Part shown: positions 19,859 to 53,714 of the stretch, one piece after another
Position numbering within the stretch: the first letter of the stretch is position 1
How the letters are laid out: the number at the start of each line of letters is the position of its first letter
DNA from: a virus
Lineage: Duplodnaviria > Caudoviricetes
Length of the DNA stretch: 64,000 nt
IMG/VR virus record: IMGVR_UViG_3300048502_000015
Location: 1-64,000 of that record
Strand: one strand, 5' to 3'
The notes under the pieces: model-generated
Seen by the model: only the letters and a program-made list of their open reading frames with translations
What the model was told of the DNA's origin: nothing
The model's database searches: none
Position numbers and translations under genes: made by a program

Positions 19859-21079
19859 TTACACTTTTTGTTCGTCGTAATACGTATGCAAATCTTTCAA
19901 CGGTCCTACATTGAATTGTAGACCAGGATGTTCTATTTGTACAGGCTCAGGGGAATGAGCAACTGTGATATGAGGTTTATAGCCACCTTCAAATCTAGAT
20001 ACAGGGAGTCCACGAGCCTCGGCTTCATTCATCAAGGCTTCTGTATGCTTAATTAGATCATCATTATGGACACGCACCACAATGGGATGAGGTTTTTCGT
20101 CTTCCATTGGAGAAAATGCATCTACGCTTTGAGTAGATACAGGATAAGTTAATCCGCTGCGTTCTTGTACCCAACGCTGATGATCGGGATTAGAAAACCC
20201 ACTAGGACTATAAATCCCCGTAACATGATAACGCTCGGGAGGAGCAAGCTTAGTCCCCTCAGGCCATTGTTGATTCTGGGTCCATTCGTTGATCTGTTGT
20301 TTGGCTTCATCGGGAACCATGTAACTAGGAGCAAACCAATCCCCTGCCGATTTCTTAACGCTCGCAATATGAATTCCGGTTAGTTCTGAAATCTTCTCAA
20401 GCAATCCTCGTTTAGCTAGAAACTTGTACAACACATTCGATTCTGCAAAATCCCCTTTTCCTGCGGCCTGATCTCTTTGTCGTTTAGCATGGATCTGATG
20501 ATAGAATTGAACGGCCTTGTCTGGTTCATATCGTATCAACCTTTCAAGTTTGTCTGCCATCTGCAAAGCCCATGTATAGAATCCATTTTCCTCTTGCTCT
20601 ACATTATGAGCACGAGAATGCTCAGGTGGAACAAACCATTTATCTTCATCTAAACTATAGGCTGATCTTAGTCCCGGCTTGTATAAATCTTCTGGCTTGA
20701 TATCATGGGCCACTACGAAATTCTGAAGCGGAAATGATGTTCCTGGAAGATTCTTGCCGTCAAGATTTCCGACCATAACACCAATCATCTCGGCGCGACT
20801 CCATTCGGGAAAACGCTTTGAATCTACAAATAATGAAACGTCTACATCAGAATCCTGTCCATATTGATATGTCGTAAGAGAACCCGTTAAATACAAGGTT
20901 AGCCATGTTTCAGAATCAGTATATCCAGCCTGTTTTAAGGTCTGATAAACCTCTCGAATAATCCAGTTACGATGCTGAAGCTTTAGTTTTGGCTCAGGGG
21001 ATTCGGGATCATCGAAAACGAGCGGTGATAAACCGGCATGAATAGGATCTAGGATATTCGACCGTTTAGACTTGGCCAT
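19859..21079 (-). CDS. Pol-beta-type nucleotidyltransferase fused to 2H phosphoesterase
   Basis: LTGS..SDVDV (GS + DxD); two HxT motifs YHVT and PHIT; start revised to MAKSK. Confidence 0.8.
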   Translation of the reverse strand: MAKSKRSNILDPIHAGLSPLVFDDPESPEPKLKLQHRNWIIREVYQTLKQAGYTDSETWLTLYLTGSLTTYQYGQDSDVDVSLFVDSKRFPEWSRAEMIGVMVGNLDGKNLPGTSFPLQNFVVAHDIKPEDLYKPGLRSAYSLDEDKWFVPPEHSRAHNVEQEENGFYTWALQMADKLERLIRYEPDKAVQFYHQIHAKRQRDQAAGKGDFAESNVLYKFLAKRGLLEKISELTGIHIASVKKSAGDWFAPSYMVPDEAKQQINEWTQNQQWPEGTKLAPPERYHVTGIYSPSGFSNPDHQRWVQERSGLTYPVSTQSVDAFSPMEDEKPHPIVVRVHNDDLIKHTEALMNEAEARGLPVSRFEGGYKPHITVAHSPEPVQIEHPGLQFNVGPLKDLHTYYDEQKV

Positions 21080-24000
21080 TGTGGTACTCCATCGCGCGCT
21101 GAAGCAGCGTATCTCTGTCGTTGAGAGTCGGGTCGTCCACAACGTCGTTGGTCAGATTTCTGAGCACGGCTCCCAGACCAGCACCCTGAGGAATGCCCAG
21201 ATTGATTAGGTCATTTCCATTCACGGCGATAGCAGATTGTTGAGTAGGATCTTGAGCCGAACGAGATTGCTCGACAAGTCCTCGCATTTGATCAACGTCG
21301 CCATCCCAAGGATTCTTCTTTCCTCCGGCATCAGCTTCTCGAAGAGTTAGAAGATCGTCCGCATTATCCCCTACTTTGTTAAGGAACTTGCGTGCGCCCT
21401 TAGAAGAATTGAAGTGAGGGAACATGTGCATTGCAACGAGAGACTGAATTCTACGGATTCTAGATACAGGATAATGAAGGTTTCTCAGATTGTCTTCAAC
21501 CATTTGGGAGCCAAGGATTTCGTGATCTGCCCCTTGGCCTTCGGCATTCTGGTAGTAATGATTGTATCCATCGGGTCCCGTCCAAGCCGAATTTGGCTTG
21601 CCGATATCATGGAGAAGAGCAGCCAGTCTAAGATCGGGATCAGAAGAATTCTGACTTACATGATCAAGAACGTTTAGAGAATGATCTCCAAGGGTCATTG
21701 AATGATGCTTGTTATTTTGGTCGAAGTCGAAGTTATGAGCTAGCTCAGGGAATAGATGATGAAGAACTCCAGTATCCTGAGCTAGACGAATAGCCCCGGC
21801 AGGATTAGGAGACTGGAATAGCTTATCCAGTTCTTTGTTGATTGCATCAGGCGATTCTCCTCCAAGTTTAGCGGAGTTGTCAATCATCTCTTGGCGAGTT
21901 CTTTCATCCGGAATGAGTCCATGACGAGATGAGGCCACAAGAGCACGAACAAGCCGAGTAGGGTCTTCCTCAAATGAAGACGGATGAGTTGTTCTGAGAG
22001 TAGAACGCTCAATGTCTTTTGCCCCACCAAATGGGTCGATAAGCTTTCCATTATCGAGATTGACGGCCATCGAGTTAACCGTAAAGTCTCTGCGCTCAAG
22101 GTCTTTTTCAACAGGAAGAGTATGATCGACGGTGATCTGTCCTTCTCCTCTGCGCCCGGATTCATACTTGTCTTGTCTCGGAAGAGCAATCTCTACTTCT
22201 GCTCCATGAGTCTTATAGCGATAGACGCCAAACTTCTTTCCGGTAAGATTAACCGAACCCTTAAGCTGGGATAGAGCGTGTTCAACCTCTTCTGGCGGAA
22301 TGCCAGAAACCATAAGGTCGATATCCTTAGGCTCGCGCTGGAGAAGGGCATCTCTTACTGCACCACCAACGACGTAGACCTGTCCACCAGCAGCCTTAAG
22401 GGTACGATAAGCCGACCAAGCAGCCGGGTCCGTAGCTGTCATTGTACGAATGTACTGACCTACGCTTTGCGAGGTAGCAAGTTTTGTCGTATTTCCTGTT
22501 GGGTCTTTGAGTTCCACGCTTGTTACTTCCATCTGAGGATGGCTATAATACCAGAGTTGAATTAAATGTCGCACAGAATATGGCTGATCCGTCATATTCT
22601 GAACGGTTACCTTACCTCCGGGAGCGTAGTATCCTTCTACGATTCCCCCTGGGGTAAACTGGCCGATGATTTCAGATGTTTTAGTTCCTGGATGTCCAAT
22701 TGTAATTGTATCATGCTGAACGTCGAAGATGAAAGGAATATCCGCTTCGATCATATCCTTAGGCATTTTCCCTGCCGCATGAACATACCTCTGCCCTTTG
22801 ACATTGACGAATCCTAAGCGAGTCATTAACCTCGCTCCCTCTTCTGAACCAGCATGAGAATAAACGCCCGGATGATACTCAAGGATCTTCTTGCCCATTG
22901 CATATCCGAGTCCTCTACCAGGAACGGCATTGATCATTACGATTTCTGTTTGATCTCCATCTGGACGAACGCAAGCATATCCAAGAAGCTCCCCATTATC
23001 ATAGCCCCCGTAAAAAACTAGACCGTCATCCCTATCAAATCCCCAAAGGGATGAATACAAGTCAAACCCCTCGACGTTGGTGGCCTCACGGAAGGATGCA
23101 AGCGGGACAGCAGTTGGCCGAGAATCATGTCGTCTAGCAGGAAGCGGATCTTCTAGGTTTCCCGGAACTGGGAAATGCCCATCTTCAATTGGATCGACGC
23201 CGGGATGATGGTTCTGTACATGAAGCATGTATTCCCCAAATGTATCTAGGGGAATGTGGCAAGAAGGACATTCAAAGTTTGTATCCGGCTCTGGATTTTC
23301 CTCTTCCTTAGGTTTCCAATCCGGGTCCCAGCGATCAAAAGTCTCAAGAGTTTCGTCCTTCTTGATCTTGTCGTTGAAGTCTGTTTCTGTGCCAGGATAC
23401 TCGGCTAGTTTGTATCCGAAATCCTTTGCCCAATCTTCTAATCCTCCCAAAAAGGGTTCTTGCTCATACCCGCTGGAGGAAAGGTCATTAGCAGCATTGT
23501 AGCGTACCGTTGCATTAGTTCCTTCAATTTCAATAGTTCCTGCGAATCTTCTAAGTGGTCTTTCGGAAAGTACCAAACCCTTGTCCCACGCAAAATACAT
23601 TGTTCTTTGAGGGCCGAATGAAGATTGGACATTGTTTCCGAATCCGTCAAACTTCCATCCCACCGACTTCCCGTAATCGGAAAAGATTCGGCTGAGTCCT
23701 CGGAGAGCCATATTGCTCTGGACGTTCCATTTAGCTCGTCCCCCAGTAACACTAATCGTTCCGGTAGCGATGGGTCCGTTATGATCTTCAGGGGTCCCAG
23801 ATAGCGCTCGGAGTTGGTCGGTAGAGTGTATCGGAGAGACATGAAGTTGTCCCTGTCCGTAGAAAAATTGGAATTGCTTTGTGTCACTGTCATTTTCGTT
23901 TACCCATGGTTCATCGTGTAGATATTTGTTGTTCATATCCTCAATCGCTTGAGGAGTAGAACCGGGATATGCAGTTGGCCCCATGAGATCTGCCGTTTTA

Positions 24001-24398
24001 CGACCGGCTAGGATATCATCTGCCCTTTTAGCAAACAGTTTAGCACGCGGAGTATCTGGCGTGTTAGTTTTTACTCGAAGATCTTTGAAGAGTTTATGAG
24101 AAGTTCTTTTGAATAGAACCGGCCCAGGATTCTTTCCGGAAGGATGAGCATCTCCAGTGAGATCCACCGCATGAGTCTTATCCGGAGAAACCCAAAAGTA
24201 ATGACCATTCTTGATTCCGACATATCCTCCCCAATGCTTAGTTAACCATTTTGAAACTACGTAGCAATGACCATGACTTAGATTCGGATGGCCAGCGAAC
24301 TTCTCGTGGCGCGTATCGTCCCCGAAAGCTTGCTCGGCAGCATTTCGATAAGTAAGAAGTTTGTCTTGGCTTAAGCTAGTAGGATCAAAATCTGACAT
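21066..24398 (-). CDS. cca: polyvalent protein: papain-like domain, C2H2 Zn, GNAT, class II CCA-adding enzyme + HD domain
   Basis: VVGGAVRD..KDIDL..DLERRDFTVN..EDPTRLVRA..LLHDIGK; N-term GHC..HYF..VDLT; GRGLG..RLGF. Confidence 0.88.
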   Translation of the reverse strand: MSDFDPTSLSQDKLLTYRNAAEQAFGDDTRHEKFAGHPNLSHGHCYVVSKWLTKHWGGYVGIKNGHYFWVSPDKTHAVDLTGDAHPSGKNPGPVLFKRTSHKLFKDLRVKTNTPDTPRAKLFAKRADDILAGRKTADLMGPTAYPGSTPQAIEDMNNKYLHDEPWVNENDSDTKQFQFFYGQGQLHVSPIHSTDQLRALSGTPEDHNGPIATGTISVTGGRAKWNVQSNMALRGLSRIFSDYGKSVGWKFDGFGNNVQSSFGPQRTMYFAWDKGLVLSERPLRRFAGTIEIEGTNATVRYNAANDLSSSGYEQEPFLGGLEDWAKDFGYKLAEYPGTETDFNDKIKKDETLETFDRWDPDWKPKEEENPEPDTNFECPSCHIPLDTFGEYMLHVQNHHPGVDPIEDGHFPVPGNLEDPLPARRHDSRPTAVPLASFREATNVEGFDLYSSLWGFDRDDGLVFYGGYDNGELLGYACVRPDGDQTEIVMINAVPGRGLGYAMGKKILEYHPGVYSHAGSEEGARLMTRLGFVNVKGQRYVHAAGKMPKDMIEADIPFIFDVQHDTITIGHPGTKTSEIIGQFTPGGIVEGYYAPGGKVTVQNMTDQPYSVRHLIQLWYYSHPQMEVTSVELKDPTGNTTKLATSQSVGQYIRTMTATDPAAWSAYRTLKAAGGQVYVVGGAVRDALLQREPKDIDLMVSGIPPEEVEHALSQLKGSVNLTGKKFGVYRYKTHGAEVEIALPRQDKYESGRRGEGQITVDHTLPVEKDLERRDFTVNSMAVNLDNGKLIDPFGGAKDIERSTLRTTHPSSFEEDPTRLVRALVASSRHGLIPDERTRQEMIDNSAKLGGESPDAINKELDKLFQSPNPAGAIRLAQDTGVLHHLFPELAHNFDFDQNNKHHSMTLGDHSLNVLDHVSQNSSDPDLRLAALLHDIGKPNSAWTGPDGYNHYYQNAEGQGADHEILGSQMVEDNLRNLHYPVSRIRRIQSLVAMHMFPHFNSSKGARKFLNKVGDNADDLLTLREADAGGKKNPWDGDVDQMRGLVEQSRSAQDPTQQSAIAVNGNDLINLGIPQGAGLGAVLRNLTNDVVDDPTLNDRDTLLQRAMEYHNGQV

Positions 24399-26746: not shown

Positions 26747-27211
26747 TCATTGAACCTCCTTGATGTAAGTAACGCTGTCATAAGTCTCGTTTGGAAGATC
26801 GACCAGCATCTTCTCGTACTTCTTAATCATTGTGGCCATTGCGTCATCTGGGACAGGGACTTCTCTCGCAGCATTGCGGAGAACGGCCTGCTCAGGATTA
26901 GCAAATACTATAGCATGAATCTCGACTTTGTGATCCTTGGCCACTTCCCAAAGTCGTTCTCTAGCTCCCTGGGATAGAGCGGTTGAGTCCGCTACGGCAA
27001 TAGCGTAGCCACAACAAAAACGAGAACAAATTCGTAAATGAAAAATCTCAAAGACCTTATCGTTGAAATCCTGGTTATATGGATCTCCGTGAAGTTCTTT
27101 GCGGATCTCATCGGATGCCACTACAGCGGTTGGAAACCAACGCTCGGCAAACGTACTTTTGCCGCAACCCGGAATGCCAACCAGCATGATAAGTTTTGGT
27201 GTTGGTGCCAT
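26747..27211 (-). CDS. polynucleotide kinase-like P-loop protein
   Basis: GIPGCGKST..SDEIR..DST..R; leaderless promoter at 27218-27226. Confidence 0.85.
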   Translation of the reverse strand: MAPTPKLIMLVGIPGCGKSTFAERWFPTAVVASDEIRKELHGDPYNQDFNDKVFEIFHLRICSRFCCGYAIAVADSTALSQGARERLWEVAKDHKVEIHAIVFANPEQAVLRNAAREVPVPDDAMATMIKKYEKMLVDLPNETYDSVTYIKEVQ

Positions 27212-43750: not shown

Positions 43751-43821
43751 TTGCGACAGAGGGAATTGAACCCTCCTCTAGACACCGTATGAAAGTGTAC
43801 GCCCACCACGGGCTTGTCGCA
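43751..43821 (-). tRNA. tRNA-Met/Ile (CAT), atypical D arm
   Basis: cloverleaf, loop TTCATAC. Confidence 0.65.
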
Positions 43822-43920
43822 TTGGATTTCCCCTACCGCCTATCCCGGTCATAGGGTACTCAAGGTTGTGCTTACAGACTCCCTAAATCCGGGGTGCGGT
43901 CTGTAGATAGGCGTCACAAG

Positions 43921-44334
43921 TTAAACTACGTTTACCCGTCGAGAAGACTTGTACCAATGATAATGCTTAAAATGGCGTCGATTAGCTCGGCCATTTTTGC
44001 CGCAATAAACGCACATTTTGTACTCTCGTGTAACGAGATATGGTTTACGAGGAGGCCAAGGATAGGCCATAACCTCTTCTTCACCAGTCAAATAAGCGTG
44101 TCGCTTATGTCCTTCTCGGGCAGGGCAATACGAGATCTTCTTCTTTTCCTTCTTTCGAGACTTTCCGTTAGAAGGATGATCTAGAATCGGGGGCTGACGA
44201 TCATCTCGTGCTGCCCAGCTATCGGTTCGAACCGTTTTGATAGGGCCTCCTCGAAGGGCGGCTGCTTCTGCGGAACGAACTCTCTTGTTGTCGATTCGTT
44301 TACGAATGTGACGACTTGTAGATTTACGAGCCAT
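43921..44334 (-). CDS. highly basic protein with Cys/His motif
   Basis: strong SD AAGGAG; Arg/Lys-rich; CVYCG. Confidence 0.75.
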   Translation of the reverse strand: MARKSTSRHIRKRIDNKRVRSAEAAALRGGPIKTVRTDSWAARDDRQPPILDHPSNGKSRKKEKKKISYCPAREGHKRHAYLTGEEEVMAYPWPPRKPYLVTREYKMCVYCGKNGRANRRHFKHYHWYKSSRRVNVV

Positions 44335-44404
44335 GTTTGTTTTCTCCTTGTTAATAGGTTACTTTACAAACATATTCGTTCTCCTTGGTTAGTTGATTAT
44401 AAAG

Positions 44405-44476
44405 AGCGGGTAGAGGGAATTGAACCCTCATCTCAGGTGTGGAAGACCGGCATAATAGCCTTTATACTATACCCGC
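44405..44476 (-). tRNA. tRNA-Gly (TCC)
   Basis: cloverleaf. Confidence 0.9.
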
Positions 44477-44508
44477 AAGATACCTTTTATAGTCATGCTC
44501 AGGACTGA

Positions 44509-44582
44509 AGCCCATTTAGGGAATCGAACCCTATCTATTTCGCTTTACAAGAGCGATGCAGCACCATTTCTGCATAATGGGC
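44509..44582 (-). tRNA. tRNA-Thr (TGT)
   Basis: cloverleaf. Confidence 0.9.
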
Positions 44583-44589
44583 GATACTA

Positions 44590-44910
44590 TTACAGCTTCA
44601 TTATCCGGGGTTCTGTCCCTATTTCTAGGTGACGATCATCTGTCTCAGTTAGCCTATTTCTAGGCTTCCCTGGCGGATTCTTGACGAGTTGCCCGCTGCC
44701 CTCTACCTGCTATGTCCGTAGGTCTTTGCCCTTAGGATTCGCGTCTTGAGGTTGCATCCTCAGTTCCCATTCGAGGTTCAAGCGCCTTAGCTCCCTCCAA
44801 ATGTTACTTATTTACTGAGTTAGTTAAGCTCATAACCGAGTTTCCTCGGCCAGGATGCCCCGAAATTCCTCTACATATACCTTCTATGCAGCGACCGTCT
44901 TTAACTGTAA
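44590..44910 (-). ncRNA. rnpB: RNase P RNA
   Basis: P1 TTACAGTT/AGCTGTAA, P2 GACGGTC/GATCGTC, P3, CR-I GAGGAATTTCGGGG pairing with CR-V ACAGAACCCCGGATA, GGCAAAGACC, AGACAGATGATC. Confidence 0.85.
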
Positions 44911-44912
44911 GT

Positions 44913-45122
44913 TTAGGAAATTCTTTGAACAACTACTACTTGAGTATCCCCTTTCATGAAGGTCCGGACTACCTTACTCTTGATATTGACCTGTCCAGGA
45001 TGGGCATGAACGATTGCACCAGGACCATACTTGGGGGCCGGTATAACCACACCCAAGTCTTCGTTGTTCCAATCTCTCGTGTATAGCTCTTCTACAAAAA
45101 GAGCCTTAGTATGTTTGCTCAT
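44913..45122 (-). CDS. hypothetical protein (leaderless)
   Basis: TGTGATATACT 6 nt before ATG. Confidence 0.65.
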   Translation of the reverse strand: MSKHTKALFVEELYTRDWNNEDLGVVIPAPKYGPGAIVHAHPGQVNIKSKVVRTFMKGDTQVVVVQRIS

Positions 45123-45140
45123 ATACATAGTATATCACAA

Positions 45141-45229
45141 ATCCTACAGCAAGATTCAAACTTGCGACACCATTTCGATTCCGGGTCCTACCCGGATGAT
45201 CTGTGCTCTGATCACTGAGCTATGTAGGA
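45141..45229 (-). ncRNA. tRNA-like RNA with anticodon arm replaced by long hairpin
   Basis: acceptor TCCTACA/TGTAGGA, D arm GCTC/GAGC, T arm; TCCGGGT-AGG-ACCCGGA. Confidence 0.65.
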
Positions 45230-45368
45230 TGGCCTAGATAGAAACCCGCCGCTTATCTTCGGTCGGTTACGTAGCGACAAATCGCGGGAGATAAGCCCAA
45301 CGAAAACCTTGCCTCCTGGTACTCCCCGGTCATCATGAATCCGAGGGCCAGTTCCACCGTCTATCTAA

Positions 45369-45428
45369 TAGTGATAGGAGAATCGAACTCCAAATTAAGG
45401 GGTCTTCCTTAATCAACCTATATCACTA
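45369..45428 (-). ncRNA. mini tRNA-like RNA lacking a D arm
   Basis: TAGTGATA/TATCACTA stem, T loop TTCGATT, one hairpin. Confidence 0.5.
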
Positions 45429-45479
45429 GCTTTCTACTGAGTTAATTATCATGTGCTGATTCCTGGCGATGAGCCAGAG

Positions 45480-45551
45480 AGGAGTAGAGCGGTTTCGAGC
45501 CGCCTTCTGGGACATGGCAAGCCCCTGTAATAGCCAGTATACGACTACTCC
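45480..45551 (-). tRNA. tRNA-Gly (GCC)
   Basis: cloverleaf. Confidence 0.85.
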
Positions 45552-45632
45552 AAACACGCGGCAAACATATGATCATGGGAACTTCGGGTTTACCGCGTTA
45601 TACCCTAGCCGCACCATATGTTTTATTTTTAG

Positions 45633-45705
45633 TACCCCTGGACGGATTCAAACCGCCGACCTGATCGTTCGAAGCGACCCACTCTATTCACTGAGCTACA
45701 GAGGC
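45633..45705 (-). tRNA. tRNA-Arg (TCG)
   Basis: cloverleaf. Confidence 0.9.
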
Positions 45706-45844
45706 AAGAACTACAAATTATCAATCTTCTCTTCAATCCGTCTTTCTACATCGTGATCTCTGTCTTCTTCAACCGAATCTGCCTTTACCTCGACCGTCCA
45801 TCTATTCCATAATGTCTTCATCTACCTTTACCGTCTTGGTAAAG

Positions 45845-46165
45845 CTACTGAAGCACTAAATCTGTTTCATACCAACGATAATCGCTTAGTTGGTTATTGA
45901 AAAATTCTAGCCAATCAGAAGTACCTTTTGCTTCGTCCCATGTTACCAGAAAGTACGGAGGATCAGGTGACACTCTAGGAGTAATATCCTCTTTCTCTTC
46001 AATCAAGGAAGAAATCGTCCCAACAGGATCGTCGCCCTTGAGATAGGCGAGCGCTCCAATTAGATACCAATTGATTTCGTCGCTGGAATCCAATTCAAGG
46101 GCAATATCGTTTGCCACGCCGTTTGAAAGCTTTACTTTATCTCCAATTTTCATTTCATACCTCAT
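45845..46165 (-). CDS. hypothetical protein
   Basis: MKIGDKV SH3-like. Confidence 0.6.
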   Translation of the reverse strand: MRYEMKIGDKVKLSNGVANDIALELDSSDEINWYLIGALAYLKGDDPVGTISSLIEEKEDITPRVSPDPPYFLVTWDEAKGTSDWLEFFNNQLSDYRWYETDLVLQ

Positions 46166-46339
46166 AGACTTGAGTTGTTTTACTTACGTAGTACTTTCCA
46201 TCGGCGGCAAGAATACCGACGAGGGTTCCTAAATGAATGGCAGCTATTTCTAGCTCCATCAGAGGCTTCCTCCGCTTCCATGTTCCTTGAACTGGATTCC
46301 ACTTCCTCATTGGACTTATTTCTATCTTGTAGTACATAG

Positions 46340-46415
46340 TACCCCGTATGCGGATCGAACGCATCTGATATCTCGATTAAGAGTCGAGTGCCACCACCAT
46401 TGGAGCCAACGAGGT
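46340..46415 (-). tRNA. tRNA-Lys (CTT)
   Basis: cloverleaf. Confidence 0.85.
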
Positions 46416-46480
46416 AAGCGGGCTAATTATCGTCAAGCCCAATGACTATTCGGTTGTCTAATGGCCAACCGACAAACCCA

Positions 46481-46553
46481 TGCGACTGGAGGGATTCAAA
46501 CCCACGACCTTCGGTTTCGTAGACCGACGCTCTTTTCGCTGAGCTACAATCGC
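46481..46553 (-). tRNA. tRNA-Arg (ACG)
   Basis: cloverleaf. Confidence 0.9.
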
Positions 46554-46567
46554 GTTTTGAGTGAGTA

Positions 46568-47236
46568 CTAGCCCTCACTCACGGCTTTGAGCATCTGGAT
46601 GCTATCTTCGATCTCAAAGGAATTGTCTTCCTTTGCAAACTCCCCTAGAGTGAAGTCCCTCAAGAGAGTATATTCGTAGCTGGATTCATCTCCCGCCAAG
46701 ATCAAGTCGTATACTACTGGACGCTGTTCCTTGAACTCGGTTAGCATTTTTTGAGCGAACTTTCGTTCGTCGTTTGTCATAGACGGCGCAATGCTTTTTG
46801 AAGCCAATTCTCCGACCCTTAGATGTAAGTCTCTGTGAGCTTTCAAACAAATTGGGATGGTACACTTGGACCGAGAAGCATATGCCTGATAGTTCTCAAG
46901 CATGAGCATCATCCAACGAGGTACATAGTGATGCCTCGTTATCCTACCTTCGCAAGTTAGTCCATGAATAGAGCAAATTCGGCAAACTGGTTCAATCCCT
47001 GCAAGCCGAATTCTTTCTAGGCGGCGCTCGATGACATGAGCCGGAACCACATTATCATCAGAAGCCAAACGAAGTCGATAAAGAACCTGACGCTGAGAGA
47101 GATCTTCGTCTAGAAGATCGTCCACATCAATGTCTTCGAGATCGGCAAGAAGCTCAAGCTGAGCAACAGTAGCCTTAGCTCGTTGATCGAACCAAATTTG
47201 GCCTGCTGGAGTGTTGAAAGGTCTAGCGCGGCTCAT
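46568..47236 (-). CDS. HNH-like nuclease domain protein
   Basis: CRIC..TRHHYVPR..IPICLKAHRDLH. Confidence 0.65.
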   Translation of the reverse strand: MSRARPFNTPAGQIWFDQRAKATVAQLELLADLEDIDVDDLLDEDLSQRQVLYRLRLASDDNVVPAHVIERRLERIRLAGIEPVCRICSIHGLTCEGRITRHHYVPRWMMLMLENYQAYASRSKCTIPICLKAHRDLHLRVGELASKSIAPSMTNDERKFAQKMLTEFKEQRPVVYDLILAGDESSYEYTLLRDFTLGEFAKEDNSFEIEDSIQMLKAVSEG

Positions 47237-47275
47237 TTATTTTCTCCATCTATTATATCATAGAATTGAAGTCTA

Positions 47276-47349
47276 CCCGATATTTTACCTTAAACTACAT
47301 ATCCCGTGATCAAGCGGTCAACGACGGGACTCGAACCCGCATCTTCGGA
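47276..47349 (-). ncRNA. circularly permuted tRNA-like RNA (YrlA-like)
   Basis: TCCGA-T arm-closed acceptor-D arm-TCGGG. Confidence 0.55.
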
Positions 47350-47350
47350 G

Positions 47351-47424
47351 TACCACCACCGGGATTTGAACCCGAGTTTCCGCCGTGAGAGGGCGGCGTC
47401 CTAAACCAACTAGACGATGGTGGC
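47351..47424 (-). tRNA. tRNA-Glu (CTC)
   Basis: cloverleaf. Confidence 0.92.
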
Positions 47425-47531
47425 TTGGCGGGGGTCCACCCTTTAACAGGTCTACCCCCATAATACAGCAAATATGATGCCTTATGGCCGCTTTAGGCAT
47501 TTAAAGCATCATATTTGCATCACTACAGGAA

Positions 47532-48947
47532 CTACAATGCCGCCCTCTCACGAATGTTGGCAAACGTCTGATGCCGAGTAATCTTTCCATTCTCGAAAAC
47601 AGTTTGTAGTACATCCGGGATTTGTACGTCATACATAGGAATAACGCCGTAACGTTCCGTAGCGTAGTTACCCGCCTGACTAAAGACAAGCTTCAAACGG
47701 CCTGCCTTACTTCTCTTCGAAGTATCGAGAGGAATCTTTGAGACATCATGCCAAATTCCATCTCGCTTCTGTGCGCTGCATTTGAACGCAAATCTTTGCG
47801 TATCACGGTTGACCTTCTGGAGCAAGCCCCCACCCATTCCGAAGACCATGTTTTCGGCTGAGTAGCCAGCAAGCTGGAGTCGTCCAAGGATCTTGTCGAT
47901 GCCGTTAGGATCGATCCCATCGCCCCACAAGACACGAATCTTGGGGTTAAGGACCTTGAATCCCTTAGAATTCGTAGTGGTTCCAAAACCCTTAGCCAGA
48001 GTATCTACAATCCATTCGGTTAGTAGATCTGGCGTAGGATGCTGAACGGTAATCGAATCAGGACGGACTACGAAAACCCCTTCGCGTTCAAGAATCTTAT
48101 CCTTGTACCAGGAGTTGAGATCAAGGCCAGCGACCGTATTGACAAAACGATAGATGTCATAGCTGTCGGCTACCACTGAAAGAATTCCAGTTGGGTATTT
48201 CTCAAGTAGGTCAGCCACGATCATCATTTCCTGCGCTTGTCCTCCTGCCGTCATAACCGAATGCTCAGTAGCAGGAACCGAAAATGCGAGACTTTGAGGG
48301 TCCGCATCGTAGGCTTGCATCGCCAACACCATTGCAGGGAGCGTATCTGTGCCCATGAAGTTGACTAGATGGGCTGCTCCACCGATGGCTGCTGTTTCGT
48401 CGCTTGAAGCTCCGCGATAACCAAAATCATGAAGCATGAACGGAAGACCGTCCCGGTTATCTGCTGTAGCGTCAAGATGGCCAGCAATCATTTCCTTTGT
48501 ATGGCGGCTGAGCGTAGCAACCGTTGATGGATACCAAACATGAGTCAAAAGGGACTCAACAAAGTTGGTAAGCCAAGCGCACTCTGGATCGGTATTTTCA
48601 ACCGTCATAAGCACGTTACCTGTCGGGATTACAGAACCCTCCGGAACCGCCTTGATGCGGATCGGAAGCTTGCCGTCAAGCTTGTTAACAATGTAATTCC
48701 ATCCATCAAAATTGAAGAGATTAGGATTACCAAAGTGAGTCTCGGCAATACCATAAGCCTCCCGGACATCATCCATCGTAACCGGCGTTTCAAGCTTCTC
48801 TAGGATCTTCTGCAATCCGAAAAACACCGTGTAAGGGAACTCTGCTCCCTGACGGCTTTCAAAATATGAGTAAACGCCCTCTGTCCCCTCGGGGTACATT
48901 TGATGGTGCGTCAACTTGTAGCTGTCTGTACTGAGAATTGTATTCAT
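47532..48947 (-). CDS. nadV: nicotinamide phosphoribosyltransferase (NAMPT)
   Basis: TDSYKLTH, LHDFGYRG, PATEHS, SVVADSYD, VRPDS, GDGI, FGMGGGLLQ. Confidence 0.95.
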   Translation of the reverse strand: MNTILSTDSYKLTHHQMYPEGTEGVYSYFESRQGAEFPYTVFFGLQKILEKLETPVTMDDVREAYGIAETHFGNPNLFNFDGWNYIVNKLDGKLPIRIKAVPEGSVIPTGNVLMTVENTDPECAWLTNFVESLLTHVWYPSTVATLSRHTKEMIAGHLDATADNRDGLPFMLHDFGYRGASSDETAAIGGAAHLVNFMGTDTLPAMVLAMQAYDADPQSLAFSVPATEHSVMTAGGQAQEMMIVADLLEKYPTGILSVVADSYDIYRFVNTVAGLDLNSWYKDKILEREGVFVVRPDSITVQHPTPDLLTEWIVDTLAKGFGTTTNSKGFKVLNPKIRVLWGDGIDPNGIDKILGRLQLAGYSAENMVFGMGGGLLQKVNRDTQRFAFKCSAQKRDGIWHDVSKIPLDTSKRSKAGRLKLVFSQAGNYATERYGVIPMYDVQIPDVLQTVFENGKITRHQTFANIRERAAL

Positions 48948-48985
48948 AATCTTATCCTTGTATAGATTGTTGAATGTATATTGTA

Positions 48986-49966
48986 CTACACTTGCTGCTT
49001 ATGTGCTCTGCGGGTCACAATGACGTTGATCAAATCCTGGTGATTCGGAACAACGTCCAAATCCCAGTCAAGATCAAACCACTTAACCTCGGCAATGTCA
49101 TCTCCTGGCTTAGGAGTCCCGAACATATGCTTGGCCTCGAAGAGCAGAGTCTTGATAACTCTATCTGGCTCTTTGCGATAGCGCCAATCATCGATTAGGT
49201 AGCTCCCGACATAGACCGGATCAGTAATCTCGATCCCGGCTTCCTCTGAAACCTCTCTGCGGGCATCTGCCTCGTAGCTAGGACTCTTAGGATCGGAGAA
49301 CCCTCCGATCAGTCGGAACTTCTTCTCATTGGCTTTGCGGCCTAGAAGGATCTTGCTTCCGTCCTCGTTGAGGATGGCAACATCGACTGTTGCAAAGCAT
49401 TGAGGAAACTGGCTGAATGCAGCCCAGACAACGCCTGCGCGGAAATCCGGAGTCCCTCGAACGCTTGTGCGAGAAACCTCTTTGCGGATTTCGCTTCCCG
49501 AAACAAAGACCTGAGATTCAAGCTCTTCGCTGGGATGCTTTCCCGAATAATGAGAGATGAATGAGTCGCGTCCTCCATAGAGAAGAACGGTCTGATTCGG
49601 GGTAATCACATCATCGATTTGAGTATCGAGATTGCGGCTCCAAACTTCATCGTCGGGCTGGTCCTTGATGTAAAGGACGTTCACATGAGGGAACTTGGCA
49701 AGGATCATCTGCTTGCGTCCCTCGAAGTCCAAAGGATTCTCTCGGGTGACCATCAAAGGCGACAAGCCAAGAAAGATGATTACTTTTCCATGGCGGTCAC
49801 AAACGGTCTGAATAAGTTCCATATGAGCATCATGTAGCTCGGGAACCTGAAAACGGCCTACGATTACACCGACATCCTGGCTGTTAGCTCTGGCGCGATC
49901 TCTAGATGCACCTTTGCTAAGCTTCAAGTTTCTTTCAAACTCTGTGTATTCTGCTGGATATGTCAT
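48986..49966 (-). CDS. nadM: bifunctional NMN adenylyltransferase / Nudix hydrolase
   Basis: GRFQ..LHDAH..NPL; Nudix GGF..ARREVSEEAG. Confidence 0.9.
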   Translation of the reverse strand: MTYPAEYTEFERNLKLSKGASRDRARANSQDVGVIVGRFQVPELHDAHMELIQTVCDRHGKVIIFLGLSPLMVTRENPLDFEGRKQMILAKFPHVNVLYIKDQPDDEVWSRNLDTQIDDVITPNQTVLLYGGRDSFISHYSGKHPSEELESQVFVSGSEIRKEVSRTSVRGTPDFRAGVVWAAFSQFPQCFATVDVAILNEDGSKILLGRKANEKKFRLIGGFSDPKSPSYEADARREVSEEAGIEITDPVYVGSYLIDDWRYRKEPDRVIKTLLFEAKHMFGTPKPGDDIAEVKWFDLDWDLDVVPNHQDLINVIVTRRAHKQQV

Positions 49967-50013
49967 TTTCTTCCTTTCAATTCCATCAATAACGAATTGT
50001 TTGGTTTATAAAG

Positions 50014-50089
50014 TACCAGTAGGGGGAGTCGAACCCAACCTCACTCTTGTTTAAAAGACAAGTGCCCAGTCCACACGGGCGCTACTGGC
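50014..50089 (-). tRNA. tRNA-Lys (TTT)
   Basis: cloverleaf. Confidence 0.8.
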
Positions 50090-50092
50090 AAG

Positions 50093-50176
50093 CTAATGAA
50101 CTCCTGCTGCTACAAGAACGGCTACAACGTAGCCTATCAAGATAAACAACAAAAGCGCAATCAATTTATAGTTCAT
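50093..50176 (-). CDS. 27-aa membrane peptide (leaderless)
   Basis: TGTGATATAAT-6nt-ATG; MNYKLIALLLFILIGYVVAVLVAAGVH. Confidence 0.55.
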   Translation of the reverse strand: MNYKLIALLLFILIGYVVAVLVAAGVH

Positions 50177-50200
50177 AACTACATTATATCACAGTTTAAG

Positions 50201-50272
50201 TACGCCCACGAGGATTTGAACCCCGATGTGCTGGGAATAAGCCAGATGTTCTAACCGTTGAACTATGGGCGC
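50201..50272 (-). tRNA. tRNA-Ile (TAT)
   Basis: cloverleaf, loop CTTATTC. Confidence 0.7.
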
Positions 50273-50277
50273 AAGAG

Positions 50278-50349
50278 GGTGACTGATGGGAAATGACCCC
50301 ATACCAACCGGCTTCACAGGCCAGGACTCTACATTAAGCTACAGCCACC
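50278..50349 (-). tRNA. tRNA-His (GTG)
   Basis: cloverleaf, G-1/C73. Confidence 0.85.
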
Positions 50350-50496
50350 ATGATTACTACAAACCGCTGCCGAGTCGCCACTGTCCGTTCCTAACTCCTG
50401 CTCTCGGCCAGTATCCCGTTCATCGGATACTCTCATCCACGAGACTTAAATCGTCTACCTATTAAAATGCCTTTACCGTTTATAATTAGTAGAAAG

Positions 50497-50583
50497 TAGC
50501 GGTAGAGAGGATCGAACTCTCAATTCCCTTACGGGACAACGATTTTTAAGACCGTCCTGTATACCTAATTCCAGCATACCGCC
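50497..50583 (-). tRNA. tRNA-Leu (TAA)
   Basis: cloverleaf, long variable arm. Confidence 0.9.
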
Positions 50584-50587
50584 AAAT

Positions 50588-51112
50588 ATGACTAAACCAA
50601 GAAAATACAATGATCCTGATCTAATTGCTGCTGTTAAATCATCAACTTCAATTGCACAAGTCTTGAATCAACTGGGACTTAAACCTGCGGGAGGTAACTA
50701 TACCACAATCAAGAATCGAACACAAGAACTTGGCTTAGATACCTCTCATTGGAGGGGTCAAGCTTGGAACAAGGGGTTAAAGGTTCCTGGTTATACCAAA
50801 CGTAATCTACAGGATATCCTAGTCGAAAATAGTCCACATAAGCAAAGTCACGGTTTGAAAATTCGCCTCATTAACGAGGGTTTACTCGAAGAAATTTGTG
50901 ATGAATGTTCAATTACTAACTGGATGAATCGGCCACTATCCTTTCATTTGGAACATATTAACGGTGTTCATAGCGATAACCGTCTTCCCAATCTACGGCT
51001 TCTATGTCCTAACTGTCATTCACAGACGCCTACCTATTGTGGCCGAAATATTGGCAAAGCCGAATCCCTCTGCCATTGGGTAGATGCCCTTGGTGCTAAA
51101 TTTCTCTCTTGA
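50588..51112 (+). CDS. HNH homing endonuclease
   Basis: CDEC..LEHING..DNRLPNLRLLCPNCHSQT. Confidence 0.9.
   Translation: MTKPRKYNDPDLIAAVKSSTSIAQVLNQLGLKPAGGNYTTIKNRTQELGLDTSHWRGQAWNKGLKVPGYTKRNLQDILVENSPHKQSHGLKIRLINEGLLEEICDECSITNWMNRPLSFHLEHINGVHSDNRLPNLRLLCPNCHSQTPTYCGRNIGKAESLCHWVDALGAKFLS
51055..51089 (-). pseudogene. 5' half of a Leu-type tRNA broken at the anticodon loop
   Basis: GGGCATC-TA-CCCAATGGCAGAGGG-A-TTCGG-CT-T. Confidence 0.6.
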
Positions 51113-51302
51113 TCGTCAAGCAGGGACCAGAACTATATTGATCGTAGCTAACCGATCTAGCCTTTACAACATAACGTTTACCGTCGATGTCAAAGGAAAT
51201 CCAAGTTGGCTCGTAGCCACAATTATCAGAAACGCCGACAATCGTTGCGGTCTTTCCTTCGAGTCCTACAAACTCGTTCTTCTTGACTGTTTCAAATTCC
51301 AT
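51096..51302 (-). CDS. hypothetical protein (leaderless)
   Basis: TGATATACT-6nt-ATG. Confidence 0.65.
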   Translation of the reverse strand: MEFETVKKNEFVGLEGKTATIVGVSDNCGYEPTWISFDIDGKRYVVKARSVSYDQYSSGPCLTIKREI

Positions 51303-51326
51303 AACTACAGTATATCATACTTCAGG

Positions 51327-51686
51327 CTAACCAAGGGCCTCTTCGATAACTTTCCAATCTTCGTCTGTTCCGTATGCTATCGGATTATCTTCGGTAAAGA
51401 CTTCGGGAATTGCATTTGGACTCACTATGATATAGAAATCATTGGGATAATCAAGTTGATTGGTCGCCTCTTTTGGCGTTGTAATTCCCTGTTCTACATG
51501 GGCGTTTACTGCATGACGCAATCCGCGTTCCGAAGCCGGAACGACTATGACGGGAGAAAATTGGTGAAGTAGTACTACTCGCTCATCCCGAAAATCTGCG
51601 GCAGTAATTTCTGATGCCTTCAGTAGACCGATTACCTGTTCTCTTTCTTTTTCGGAAAGAGCATATCTCTTTACTATTTCTCCCAT
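51327..51686 (-). CDS. hypothetical protein
   Basis: SD AAAGGA. Confidence 0.65.
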   Translation of the reverse strand: MGEIVKRYALSEKEREQVIGLLKASEITAADFRDERVVLLHQFSPVIVVPASERGLRHAVNAHVEQGITTPKEATNQLDYPNDFYIIVSPNAIPEVFTEDNPIAYGTDEDWKVIEEALG

Positions 51687-51710
51687 ATCTTTCCTTTAGG
51701 TTGTACTTAG

Positions 51711-51784
51711 CTGCGGGGAAGAGAATCGAACTCCTGATGGCTACGGTTCAAAGCCGCAGTTGCGATGCCAGCACACACCCCGCA
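51711..51784 (-). tRNA. tRNA-Gln (TTG)
   Basis: cloverleaf. Confidence 0.8.
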
Positions 51785-51885
51785 ATAAGGCGGGTTCTCA
51801 CCGCACATGCGCCATATCGTAGATGGCCCGTCTATAGACCCTTTAATTCTATAGTCGCCAAGTATCCCCTTGGTGGTCACTTAAG

Positions 51886-51957
51886 CTGCGGAAGTTGGAT
51901 TCGAACCAACATCAGACGGCTTCAGAGGCCGCTATCTTGCCATTAGACCACTCCGCA
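51886..51957 (-). tRNA. tRNA-Gln (CTG)
   Basis: cloverleaf. Confidence 0.9.
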
Positions 51958-52083
51958 AAGAGTTTGGTTGTTGTCGTACAACCATAAACGAGTCATTTCT
52001 CTGGCCTTGCTGCCGCTGCATGGCTGACTACCGGAGCGTTACCTGGGACTTAATACCCTGTTCTGAGGCGGCTAGACGATTTA

Positions 52084-52158
52084 TGGCGGCAACAGGTAAC
52101 GCTCCTGTATCGATTGGCTTATGAAACCAAGCTGGGTCTATCTCCAGTCCATACCGCA
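52084..52158 (-). tRNA. tRNA-Met (CAT), 1:72 mismatch (initiator-like)
   Basis: cloverleaf, atypical T loop. Confidence 0.7.
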
Positions 52159-52165
52159 TTAAAGG

Positions 52166-52252
52166 GAACAGGGGAAGGAATCGAACCTTCGTAGATCTGG
52201 ATATGAGCCAAATTGGAGAAAGCCCTTTAGGGCAACCAACACTCTCCCTGCA
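52166..52252 (-). tRNA. tRNA-Met (CAT) with hairpin inserted in D loop
   Basis: anticodon and T arms canonical; GCCC-TAAA-GGGC insert. Confidence 0.6.
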
Positions 52253-52264
52253 CGTAAACAAATC

Positions 52265-52340
52265 GAGGAACAACCTTACCCGTTAGGTGAAATCTAATGC
52301 CAGAGACATTAGACTATCGGACTCGAACCGATGTATCCTC
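52265..52340 (-). ncRNA. circularly permuted tRNA-like RNA (YrlA-like)
   Basis: GAGGA-T arm-closed 11-bp acceptor-D arm-TCCTC. Confidence 0.7.
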
Positions 52341-52344
52341 TCAG

Positions 52345-52430
52345 TACTCAAGAAGGGACTCGAACCCTTACGCCGTTTCACGGGCACACGCTTTTGAGGC
52401 GTGCGTGGCTACCAATTACACCACTTGAGC
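52345..52430 (-). tRNA. tRNA-Leu (CAA)
   Basis: cloverleaf. Confidence 0.9.
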
Positions 52431-52533
52431 AAAATATATACTGGACCTAGCCCTCGCGCGCTTTGCAGGGTGTTTCCGGATTTGCCATTCCTTCGTTGGA
52501 ATGGACAGGTAAGTAGTATATGTACCACCTTAG

Positions 52534-52607
52534 TACCACCAGAGGGATTTGAACCCTCGATATCTTGCTTGAAAGGCAAGCGAATTAGACCGCTATTCTA
52601 TGATGGC
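52534..52607 (-). tRNA. tRNA-Glu (TTC)
   Basis: cloverleaf. Confidence 0.9.
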
Positions 52608-52790
52608 GTGTGTACGCTCTCTGTGACAATTTGCGCATACAAGATCACATTTGGCTATTTCGGCCAAAACAGACCTTAGAGAACGTCCGTTTGTAATCAA
52701 TTGAGAAATATTATTATCCTTTTGTGAGGGATCTAAATGATGAAAATCGGTGACATAGTAGCGAAATTGCCTGATTCCTCCGCTGGCCAA
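52593..52790 (-). pseudogene. N-terminally truncated HNH endonuclease remnant
   Basis: DFHHLDP..EIAKCDLVCANCHRERT; stop lies inside tRNA-Glu. Confidence 0.65.
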
Positions 52791-52942
52791 TTCGGAAGTG
52801 GTCCTCGATTTGAATCGTCATAAAAGCTATCCTGAAGGTCCTCTTCAAGTTCAAGAACTCGATCAAGGGCTTCAAGCAGAAGACCAACTATTTCACCGAA
52901 CGAGAACCGTTCTTCGTAATATTCTCTAGTGTGTCGTTCCAT
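52733..52942 (-). CDS. hypothetical protein (leaderless)
   Basis: TGCTATACT-6nt-ATG. Confidence 0.55.
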   Translation of the reverse strand: MERHTREYYEERFSFGEIVGLLLEALDRVLELEEDLQDSFYDDSNRGPLPNWPAEESGNFATMSPIFII

Positions 52943-53049
52943 AACTACAGTATAGCAGAACTTCAAAATTCGTGCAACACCTTAACCACCTGAACGTTGG
53001 CCCAATTCGGCAAAGAACTTAGGGCCAGTAGTCTAGGGCGTTACACAAG

Positions 53050-53123
53050 TGCGAATGGGAGGACTCGAACCTCCGACCACTTCCATATCAGGGAAGCACT
53101 CTAGTCCACTGAGTTACACTCGC
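53050..53123 (-). tRNA. tRNA-Ile (GAT)
   Basis: cloverleaf. Confidence 0.92.
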
Positions 53124-53125
53124 AA

Positions 53126-53191
53126 TCTCCGTAAGAGGACCTGAGCCTCTACCTCTGGCTGCCGCCAGGATGCTTCTTACACCATACGGAA
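53126..53191 (-). ncRNA. degenerate tRNA-like RNA with shrunken anticodon loop
   Basis: acceptor, T arm intact; CTGGC-GGCA-GCCAG. Confidence 0.5.
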
Positions 53192-53192
53192 G

Positions 53193-53264
53193 TGGTCCCA
53201 GAGGGAATCGAACCCTCTACGCCCTCCTCTTCAGGGAGGCGCTCTACCATTGAGCTACAGGACC
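53193..53264 (-). tRNA. tRNA-Phe (GAA)
   Basis: cloverleaf. Confidence 0.92.
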
Positions 53265-53630
53265 ATATACCTGCCGATCTCTCAGAAGGTATCTACAACA
53301 GGCGGACATGTTGAGCCGCCGAAAAGCTTGCAATCCACTTTTGTAGAATGGATTCGTTACTTTTCGGTGCCGGTTTCATCGTCCAACCGCTTGGTTAAAA
53401 CTACTATTTTCTTTGGCTTTTGCATACTATTTATACTACCTATTATCGGGTTATTACACTTGTACAAAAGTACAAGATTTAGTGGCTTATTCTATCCTTA
53501 CACCACTATCCAGTGATAACGTCGGTGTCACGACCTGATAGATGGCAATTAGATAGATCGGAGTGTGCGGTATGACCAGAGGAGTCCACACACCCCTGAT
53601 ACCGAGTGGATTTTACACAAGAACGATCTA

Positions 53631-53714
53631 CGGAATACCAGAGAATCGAACTCTGCCGGGACATAGCCCCTTATCTCGTTTCCAGCGAGACTCCTAACCA
53701 ATCGGTTATATTCC
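53631..53714 (-). tRNA. tRNA-Ser (GGA)
   Basis: cloverleaf, long variable arm. Confidence 0.85.

Follow-up and report, generated by a model that had tools for sequence, protein, structure and literature searches.

Two adjacent genes of an uncultured Caudoviricetes phage, here called gene A and gene B, may together serve as a kit for maturing and repairing tRNA 3' ends, built in a polyvalent, polyprotein-like manner, a reading to which we give a probability of roughly 0.5. Both lie in the first 64 kb (hereafter the window) of the 160,424-bp IMG/VR record IMGVR_UViG_3300048502_000015, which CheckV rates as complete, and both are encoded on the minus strand, as are all genes of the locus discussed below. 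Gene A codes for a modular protein that ends in a class II CCA-adding enzyme with an HD domain and gene B for a fusion of a minimal Pol-beta nucleotidyltransferase (NTase) with a 2H phosphoesterase (Table 1), and the pair is conserved in a clade of tRNA-rich uncultured phages of ~160-180 kb.

In the scheme that we favour, the CCA module would add CCA or CA to phage tRNAs once their 3' trailer has been cut off, and could also rebuild trimmed tRNA ends. The 2H domain of gene B would open 2',3'-cyclic phosphates, the HD domain of gene A could remove the remaining phosphate, and, by analogy with RlaP, the NTase of gene B may act ahead of CCA addition and replace one or two nucleotides lost from the 3' end. 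Both proteins resemble polyvalent or polyprotein chains in their build, with modules that are shuffled among relatives and end in K-x-A or Y-I-A. The domain identities, the intact catalytic motifs, the CCA-less tRNAs, the synteny and the fusion are observed, whereas what each enzyme does, the sequence in which they act and what the NTase acts on are inferred.

The CCA-adding module and its probable tRNA substrates

The preliminary description of this DNA, made from the sequence alone, had placed a class II CCA enzyme and an HD domain at the end of a 1110-aa protein, and this was confirmed with Pfam and PHROG: PolyA_pol matched residues 674-802 (2.8e-29; 102 bits for a cut-off of 23) together with PolyA_pol_RNAbd (2.7e-9), HD (3.1e-8; 34.4 bits for a cut-off of 22) and tRNA_NucTran2_2 (3.6e-4) matched the C-terminal part, and PHROG 2244 (“tRNA nucleotidyltransferase”) matched with an E-value of 1.6e-61. 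Among NCBIfam models, the actinobacterial CCA enzyme TIGR02692 ranked first (201.8 bits, 1.6e-59), followed by PRK10885/NF008137 (“multifunctional CCA addition/repair protein”; 141.8 bits, 2.6e-41), NF009814 (139.9 bits) and pcnB (121.2 bits). All equivalog cut-offs were missed (438.8 for TIGR02692, 451 for NF008137 and 290 for NF009814); by these scores the module is a divergent member of the family, for which the CCA models nevertheless outrank pcnB. Its best relatives in the PDB are CCA-adding enzymes, with 3h37 from Thermotoga first (9.6e-30), then 6ibp and 1miv.

The catalytic motifs are intact and invariant in an alignment of 47 homologues: motif A (GG..RD and DxD; G678, G679, R682, D683, D692, D694), motif B (RRDF..N; R769, R770, D771, F772, N775), motif D (DP.R; D812, P813, R815, R818) and the metal-site residues of the HD domain (H898, H899, H930, D931, H959, H991). 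The module takes up the last 470 residues of gene A, is complete and is the only class II enzyme of the genome. With the multifunctional Cca of E. coli (NF008137) and the actinobacterial enzyme (TIGR02692) it shares the layout of head, neck, body and HD domain and motifs A, B and D; it differs from them in scoring far under the equivalog cut-offs, in the 660 residues of unrelated modules that precede it, and in being encoded by a phage, where it would serve the many phage tRNAs that lack CCA. Stand-alone phage tRNA nucleotidyltransferases (PHROG 2244; mycobacteriophage ScoobyDoobyDoo, Halogranum tailed virus 1, Vibrio phages) belong to the same family and likewise occur in tRNA-carrying phages, but a tblastn search against 50,697 deposited phage records aligned gene A to them over the CCA part only (residues 682-1100, 27-31% identity), and no record covered the N-terminal 680 residues. 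A megablast search of the locus against the deposited phage records yielded nothing, near-identical records possibly lying outside both searches.

ARAGORN detected 34 tRNA genes and one transfer-messenger RNA (tmRNA) gene in the window, and CCA follows the discriminator in 0 of these 35 tRNA-like genes, in 0 of 32 tRNAs of one related phage (G001, the phage of locus L002) and in 0 of 40 tRNAs of another (G002, the phage of L001). The earlier statement that none of ~38 tRNAs, nor the tmRNA, encodes CCA thus holds apart from the count. The discriminator is followed by C then T in 21 of the 35 genes of the window, by T in 11 and by something else in 3, so that T or CT follows in 32 of 35 genes, compared with 30 of 32 and 38 of 40 in the two relatives. 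Such uniformity of the T points to a single type of cut at the 3' end. The T or CT may be a signal for 3' processing throughout the clade, in which C74 is often already encoded; no tRNA gene of the window, G001 or G002 has CC or CCA at this place.

Because no tRNA gene carries CCA, the clade would depend on CCA addition for every tRNA that it encodes. Since the module is the only such enzyme in the genome, all tRNA and tmRNA genes lack CCA and 21 have C74 only, its main job would most likely be the addition of CCA or CA to the phage's own tRNAs. Our safest claim, drawn from motifs and gene content, is that the CCA-HD module very probably completes the phage's own tRNAs and tmRNA, and routine maturation rather than repair is probably its first job.

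The NTase-2H protein and the proposed healing of RNA ends

The longest open reading frame (ORF) of gene B opens at TTG 21142, but translation most probably starts at ATG 21079, which has a GGAG 7 nt before it and coincides with the first codon of a 406-aa database protein. From this start the gene overlaps gene A by 14 nt, across the TAA of the latter (21066-21068), and codes for a Pol-beta NTase fused to a 2H domain with both HxT motifs, as the preliminary description had it on both counts. The overlap is not conserved, and relatives have 370-960 bp and up to seven small genes between the two. The structure model of gene B has a predicted local distance difference test (pLDDT) score of 87.6. 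The 2H domain has both HxT motifs on the two-lobed alpha+beta fold of its superfamily, and it appears from its motifs to be catalytically intact.

Placing the 2H domain within its superfamily is harder. All family cut-offs were missed: 25.7 bits for TIGR02258 (ThpR; cut-off 65.7), 18.9 for PF13563 (cut-off 27), 14 for PF02834 (cut-off 23.3) and 13.9 for the Acb1 model PF23474 (cut-off 27), the last below the scores of the LigT-type models. The homologues of L002 and L003 reach 19.4-19.7 bits on the Acb1 model. RNA 2',3'-cyclic phosphodiesterases ranked first in a fold search, and the sole NCBIfam match was to an RNA 2',3'-cyclic phosphodiesterase family (8.8e-6). A search of the PDB with a profile of the domain gave chance matches only and no solved relative. 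Compared with LigT/ThpR (5h7f, 4qak, 1iuh) and phage Acb1 (7t26/7t27), the domain differs in its sub-cut-off scores, in having no solved sequence relative and in its fusion to an NTase. Its sequence and its fold thus do not separate an Acb1-like from a LigT-like domain.

The NTase domain belongs to a sharply bounded family, 45-78% identical across 264 representative clusters (E-value threshold of 1e-30) with few weaker relatives, and its clusters in the protein atlas are 79-100% viral. A profile built from 87 sequences had no match in the PDB at E<=1, and a tblastn search with gene B against the deposited phage records yielded nothing, near-identical records possibly lying outside the search. 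RlaP, an NTase with a helical domain that is often encoded beside RtcB, extends damaged RNA by 1-2 nt at the 3' end in vitro (PMC12776372). Like RlaP (PF10127; T4 NrdC.11; PfRlaP), the NTase of gene B comprises ~240 residues, the NTase domain coming first and a helical domain second, and occurs in phages. It has an RtcB neighbour in one lineage. Unlike RlaP, it has no sequence match to that family and is fused to other domains in most family members. We rejected membership in the RlaP family: a search of the genome with PF10127 stayed empty up to E<=10, a Pfam search gave no match at E<=0.1, and when the 87-sequence profile was compared with T4 NrdC.11 by hhalign the probability was 0.2%. RlaP is still the best working analogy for the NTase, and a shared job of restoring 3' nucleotides is plausible; on this analogy we propose, tentatively and at less than even odds, that the NTase extends RNA 3' ends.

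Genes A and B stand in the same order in each of the ten related loci that we examined (L001-L005, L007-L011). In L001-L005 and L009-L011 the syntenic order is a Pnkp-like kinase, three small genes, gene A, gene B and a 410-440-aa protein without known function, with extra genes inserted into the block in L007, L008 and L011. A full-length RtcB ligase gene lies just upstream of the gene B homologue in L007 and L008, which represent one lineage, and RtcB is not adjacent in this genome, L001-L005 or L009-L011. In two metagenome proteins, P0300 (1969 aa) and P0318 (1726 aa), the CCA-HD module is followed directly by the NTase in a single polypeptide.

The other domains fused to the NTase vary. 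Among 87 relatives we counted Fic (10), 2H (5), methyltransferase (~4), M78 peptidase (3) and GNAT (1), most tails having no Pfam family; PAP2, cytidylyltransferase-like and zeta/AAA_33 kinase domains were added from the atlas and PcfJ-like domains from giant proteins. In 15 proteins a 2H domain that retains both HxT motifs precedes or follows the NTase. It is therefore the NTase that constantly accompanies the CCA protein, the 2H domain being one of several interchangeable domains. Many variable tails of the family B proteins P0005-P0122 end in an acidic stretch and W-x-F within 3 residues of the C-terminus, the final residue being F in 15 of 120 proteins; such a tail, which recalls SSB and T7 gp2.5, does not occur in gene B of the window. 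The 1027-aa gene B homologue at L004:7929-11012 carries a LAGLIDADG domain at residues 352-419 (Pfam 6.3e-6), which may belong to an intein or to a homing endonuclease fused to the protein.

Healing by the 2H and HD domains is proposed because of the fold ranking, the lone NCBIfam match, the repeated occurrence of 2H-NTase fusions, the kinase of Pnkp type and, in one lineage, the neighbouring RtcB gene. Earlier work has already listed both CCA-adding enzymes and 2H domains as RNA-repair parts of phages (PMC7824862). On its motifs and rankings, we regard a role of the 2H domain as an RNA-end healer as an even bet. The heal-and-re-add system of the preliminary description therefore survives in part: a role at tRNA 3' ends fits the CCA-less tRNAs, the single enzyme with an intact HD domain, the Pnkp-like kinase, the RtcB lineage and the intact 2H domain, but the first job of the CCA module is probably maturation.

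Several points weigh against a combined maturation and repair kit. The 2H domain is under every family cut-off, with an Acb1 match nearly as good as the others; it is not a fixed partner of the NTase, and such swapping is typical of swappable conflict effectors. The NTase is, by the profile comparisons above, not a detectable RlaP member, and the N-terminal 660 residues of gene A have no explained role in a tRNA-end scheme. RNase Z favours U after the discriminator and leaves a 3'-OH. The uniform T or CT suggests a cut of this type, so routine maturation would have no need of cyclic-phosphate healing. Finally, no RNA ligase was found in the phage's own genome with PF09414, and the RtcB model matched only residues 16-50 of a 65-aa ORF, so that only ligase-free 3'-end repair would be possible; a search with PF09511 gave no match but was uninformative, as control genomes gave no response either. 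That ORF (G000:C1:136922-137086; L006:1408-1605; 31 bits) is either what remains of the ligase that the L007 phage carries whole or a short part of it encoded on its own. Tpt1/KptA (PF01885) had no match at E<=1.

Table 1. Location of genes A and B, their modules and associated genes in the window
Feature	Position	Strand	Basis
Gene A, modular protein ending in CCA-adding enzyme	21066..24398	-	ATG ORF, 1110 aa
YunG-like domain, aa 1-136, ends K-T-A-D	23991..24398	-	Pfam in relatives, atlas, invariant C45/H66/D79, secondary structure; motif in 34/47 homologues
Two beta-rich domains, aa 170-332, end K-L-A-E	23403..23891	-	AlphaFold2 pLDDT ~90; motif in 29/47 homologues
C2H2-type zinc finger, aa 372-400	23199..23285	-	Invariant C377, C380, H393; helix 387-397
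GNAT acetyltransferase fold, aa 426-545	22764..23123	-	
Beta-rich conserved domain, aa 550-641, ends K-L-A just before CCA module	22476..22751	-	Invariant residues; split in L010
Class II tRNA nucleotidyltransferase head and neck, aa 666-890	21729..22403	-	Pfam PolyA_pol, PolyA_pol_RNAbd; invariant motifs; PDB matches
HD phosphohydrolase domain and C-terminal tail domain, aa 891-1110	21069..21728	-	Pfam HD, tRNA_NucTran2_2; invariant residues; NCBIfam
Gene B, NTase-2H fusion, 406 aa	19859..21079	-	Start ATG 21079
Minimal Pol-beta NTase and helical domain, aa 1-240, ends ...H-I-A	20360..21079	-	
2H phosphoesterase, aa 245-406, H285-V-T and H370-I-T	19862..20347	-	
Small P-loop kinase like the 5'-kinase domain of bacterial Pnkp	26747..27211	-	NCBIfam TIGR04075 6.7e-20 (model positions 6-156); PHROG 505 polynucleotide kinase 4.4e-16
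34 tRNA genes and tmRNA gene, none with CCA	43751..59688	-	ARAGORN; acceptor stems re-derived

Competing roles, upstream modules and junctions

Gene B might instead be an anti-defence payload, in which the NTase carries swappable counter-defence domains, an Acb1-like 2H domain destroys cyclic oligonucleotide or 2'-5'-linked immune signals, and closeness to the CCA enzyme reflects a shared polyvalent locus and not a shared pathway. We consider this somewhat unlikely. The highly variable tails on a very conserved NTase speak for it, as do the Pfam Acb1 matches in three more distant relatives (the best at 3.9e-7) and the viral structure library BFVD, where “Acb1” and “RNA ligase / cyclic phosphodiesterase” names were mixed and the top match was named Acb1 (1.6e-5). 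In their survey of polyvalent proteins, Iyer, Burroughs, Anand, de Souza and Aravind (2017, PMC5512222) argue that the 2H domains of these proteins have no link to RNA ligases and may counter nucleotide signals. On the other side stand the lower score of the window's own protein on the Acb1 model than on LigT-type models, the first rank of RNA cyclic phosphodiesterases in the fold search, the recurrence of the 2H-NTase fusion in both orders and the presence of tRNA-end enzymes at the locus.

A further alternative concerns the chains themselves and starts from the modules upstream of the CCA enzyme, which we modelled with AlphaFold2 (665 residues, alignment of 56 homologues, mean pLDDT 80). Two modules that had been read from the sequence were borne out: a zinc finger, with three ligand residues invariant across 47-56 homologues and a helix in the model, and a GNAT domain, with the GNAT fold and the acetyl-CoA loop R/Q-x-x-G-x-G/A. 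The domain that had been called papain-like is so only in part, in that C45, H66 and D79 are invariant and, in the model, begin a helix, begin a strand and end a strand, an arrangement that fits a thiol-hydrolase layout with no structural match behind it; the family is probably YunG-like (PF24585, PF24591), with scores of 24.3-29.9 bits in relatives (cut-off 27), a feature score of 0.92-0.93 in the protein atlas (Phage_YunG-like) and no match in the window's gene A protein itself at E<=0.1. By its triad alone, the domain is a candidate peptidase. A YunG profile searched by sequence against the PDB gave only spurious matches to designed repeat proteins, and a fold search with the 665-residue model, its lists filled by GNAT matches, in effect did not cover the YunG-like and beta-rich domains. 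The three unassigned beta-rich domains, two in residues 170-332 (invariant G183, P209, G213, N229, G247, W248) and one in 550-641 (invariant P555, G568, G589, P593, G595, P621, G635), are conserved and modelled well. An internal duplication was rejected: residues 168-262 and 548-645 are unrelated (hhalign E-value 0.37), and residues 168-262 and 262-335 form at most a weak repeat (6e-4, probability 28%). Residues 1-665 were matched by 88 metagenome proteins, most of the same architecture including the CCA module.

In one relative the gene A homologue is interrupted at L005:5153-5549, between ORFs 2991-5153 and 5549-7231, within the domain equivalent to residues 550-640. The intervening DNA codes for an HNH-type nuclease motif and the halves of the homologue overlap in sequence, so the split looks like a mobile nuclease insertion and not a natural module boundary.

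Both genes pass as polyvalent proteins in having several unrelated domains in one chain that are shuffled among relatives. Like the proteins surveyed by Iyer et al., they chain and shuffle unrelated enzymatic modules (GNAT, Pol-beta NTase, 2H, candidate peptidase); they differ in that no zincin peptidase hallmark was seen, and the term “CCA-adding” is absent from the text of that survey (PMC5512222).

[KR]-x-A immediately precedes three low-confidence linkers of gene A, as K-T-A-D (133-136), K-L-A-E (329-332) and K-L-A (639-641). L010 has a natural split: a 558-aa gene of its own codes for the N-terminal part and stops exactly at ...Q-K-V-A, and the 483-aa CCA gene begins at the equivalent of residue 636. 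CCA-less relatives (P0163, P0177, P0181, P0200, P0144) end at or within 4 residues after K-[VL]-A (H-K-V-A twice, K-L-A-N-A, K-L-A-R-S-S and H-K-V-A-S-V-G-C), and 12 proteins in which the NTase comes last end exactly in G-E-[YH]-[IL]-A, where gene B runs on into the linker and 2H domain. The fused giants P0300 and P0318 retain both junctions. The loose pattern [KRH]-x-A-[DESTNGQ] also falls inside folded domains, for example in the HD motif, so the bare pattern proves nothing and the exact stops of stand-alone modules carry the argument; the motif is not significantly enriched close to linkers (4 of 7 conserved sites, estimated p ~0.07). The junctions are either unusually exact domain ends or processing sites that recreate stand-alone protein ends. 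Repeated R-[TL]-A-[SD] motifs, of the kind found at these junctions, were also noted in two unannotated proteins encoded between the portal and terminase genes (34883-36400 and 36409-37407), one of which, of 505 aa, has four of them, three being R-T-A-S/D; these may be head-internal proteins with cleavage sites.

If the junctions are cut, genes A and B and the 2848-codon giant polyvalent gene of the same window could be virion-delivered polyproteins, cleaved at K-x-A / Y-I-A, packed in the capsid and injected; the cutter could be the YunG-like Cys/His/Asp domain of gene A or a head protease, and the idea is compatible with a repair as well as an anti-defence function. We regard it as unlikely. 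It draws on the motif before the three linkers, the modules of L010, the CCA-less relatives and the NTase-ended proteins that stop at junctions, the same junctions in the fused giants, NTase modules within proteins of up to 2580 aa, and portal, terminase and weak head-protein genes 8-20 kb upstream on the same strand. Against it, no prohead protease was detected with Peptidase_S77 or S78 (ClpP gave an 11.6-bit chance match), the loose motif occurs in folded domains without a significant excess near linkers, the immediate neighbours are nucleotide-metabolism enzymes and not structural genes, a tRNA-maturing enzyme would be needed after phage tRNA transcription and not at injection, the YunG fold and its peptidase activity are predicted only, and exact ends at one residue may merely mark a domain boundary. 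The label “virion-delivered” in the preliminary description was based solely on polyvalent-like architecture and a portal gene ~8 kb upstream; with metabolic neighbours and neither a head protease nor a packaging tag found, virion delivery stands as a hypothesis drawn from the polyvalent-protein literature (PMC5512222).

Processing could also serve repair directly. A YunG-like thiol peptidase would cut after the junction alanine (K-x-A / Y-I-A) and free the CCA-HD, NTase and 2H enzymes, which would rebuild clipped acceptor ends without a ligase: the 2H domain would open the cyclic phosphate, the HD domain would remove the phosphate, the NTase would restore the discriminator and the CCA enzyme would finish, the same code organising the clade's giant polyvalent genes. 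We hold this self-processing scheme to be quite improbable.

Antitoxin mimicry is another alternative. MNT antitoxins neutralise HEPN toxins by AMPylating them, and one or more HEPN toxins are tRNA-clipping enzymes that act at the 3' end. The NTase would here AMPylate and silence host HEPN-type RNases in the manner of MNT antitoxins, with the 2H and CCA-HD domains mending clipped tRNAs that end in a cyclic phosphate. Fic, the commonest fused partner, is also an AMPylator. However, CCA-adding and TENT-type NTases score 5.3-5.5 on the same gene B model, no HEPN partner gene was noted at the locus, and an extra helical domain and tight conservation separate the NTase family from MNT antitoxins; we consider this explanation very unlikely.

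That the class II enzyme is a poly(A) polymerase (PAP) which tails RNAs for decay is highly improbable: the pcnB subfamily matches (4.6e-35), as do E. coli PAP structures (1.5e-16), and according to PMC2532741 motifs alone cannot separate the catalytic cores of PAP and CCA enzymes, but the CCA models score higher, a conserved HD domain is present as in E. coli-type Cca, and the genome holds 35 CCA-less substrates and no second CCA enzyme.

Genome setting and significance

In transcription order, the tRNA array is followed by a weak major-head-protein match (8e-6), terminase and portal (32373-34838), then by genes for a metallophosphoesterase, a deoxynucleoside monophosphate (dNMP) kinase, a HAD phosphatase, the Pnkp-like kinase and a phosphohydrolase, which lead into genes A and B. 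After gene B come a deoxyribosyltransferase-like gene, a PAPS-reductase-like gene, rIIA and rIIB, and the giant polyvalent gene. The pair is thus placed between head genes and early-type genes and is flanked by nucleotide-metabolism enzymes. The Pnkp-like kinase gene lies 2.3 kb upstream of gene A and has the same position in L001, L003-L005, L009 and L011. Promoter and terminator scans of 15-32.5 kb gave no signal above shuffle level, and searches with the neighbours at 15867-17186 and 24415-25224 yielded nothing useful.

Other features of these neighbourhoods are recorded here. The genes directly downstream of gene B (18791-19838) code for a nucleoside 2-deoxyribosyltransferase-like protein (Pfam 3.6e-33), with no blastp match in L001, and a PAPS-reductase-domain protein (1.6e-41), and with the upstream dNMP kinase and HAD phosphatase they may form a nucleotide or DNA-modification pathway. 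A PrkA / DUF444 / SpoVR trio, a stress module of the bacterial yeaG-yeaH-ycgB type and an unusual phage cargo, lies just downstream of the NTase gene at L007:9931-14808 and L011:11561-16261. An IS605 OrfB / TnpB (Cas12f-like) gene was found at L010:14046-15182, a few kb from the CCA/NTase locus.

Phage CCA-adding enzymes and phage 2H domains are already known. With respect to the surveys PMC5512222 and PMC7824862 and the literature searched, three features of this locus are new: a CCA-adding enzyme as the end module of a conserved multi-part protein; the steady pairing, and sometimes fusion, of that enzyme with a conserved, mostly viral NTase family carrying swappable partners; and a junction motif at module ends at which stand-alone versions stop exactly. 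The locus offers a defined enzyme set with which the repair of tRNA 3' ends without a ligase can be studied, as well as a possible code for the cleavage of polyvalent proteins, and, together with the 34 tRNAs and the tmRNA, suggests that this clade of phages runs much of tRNA maturation itself.

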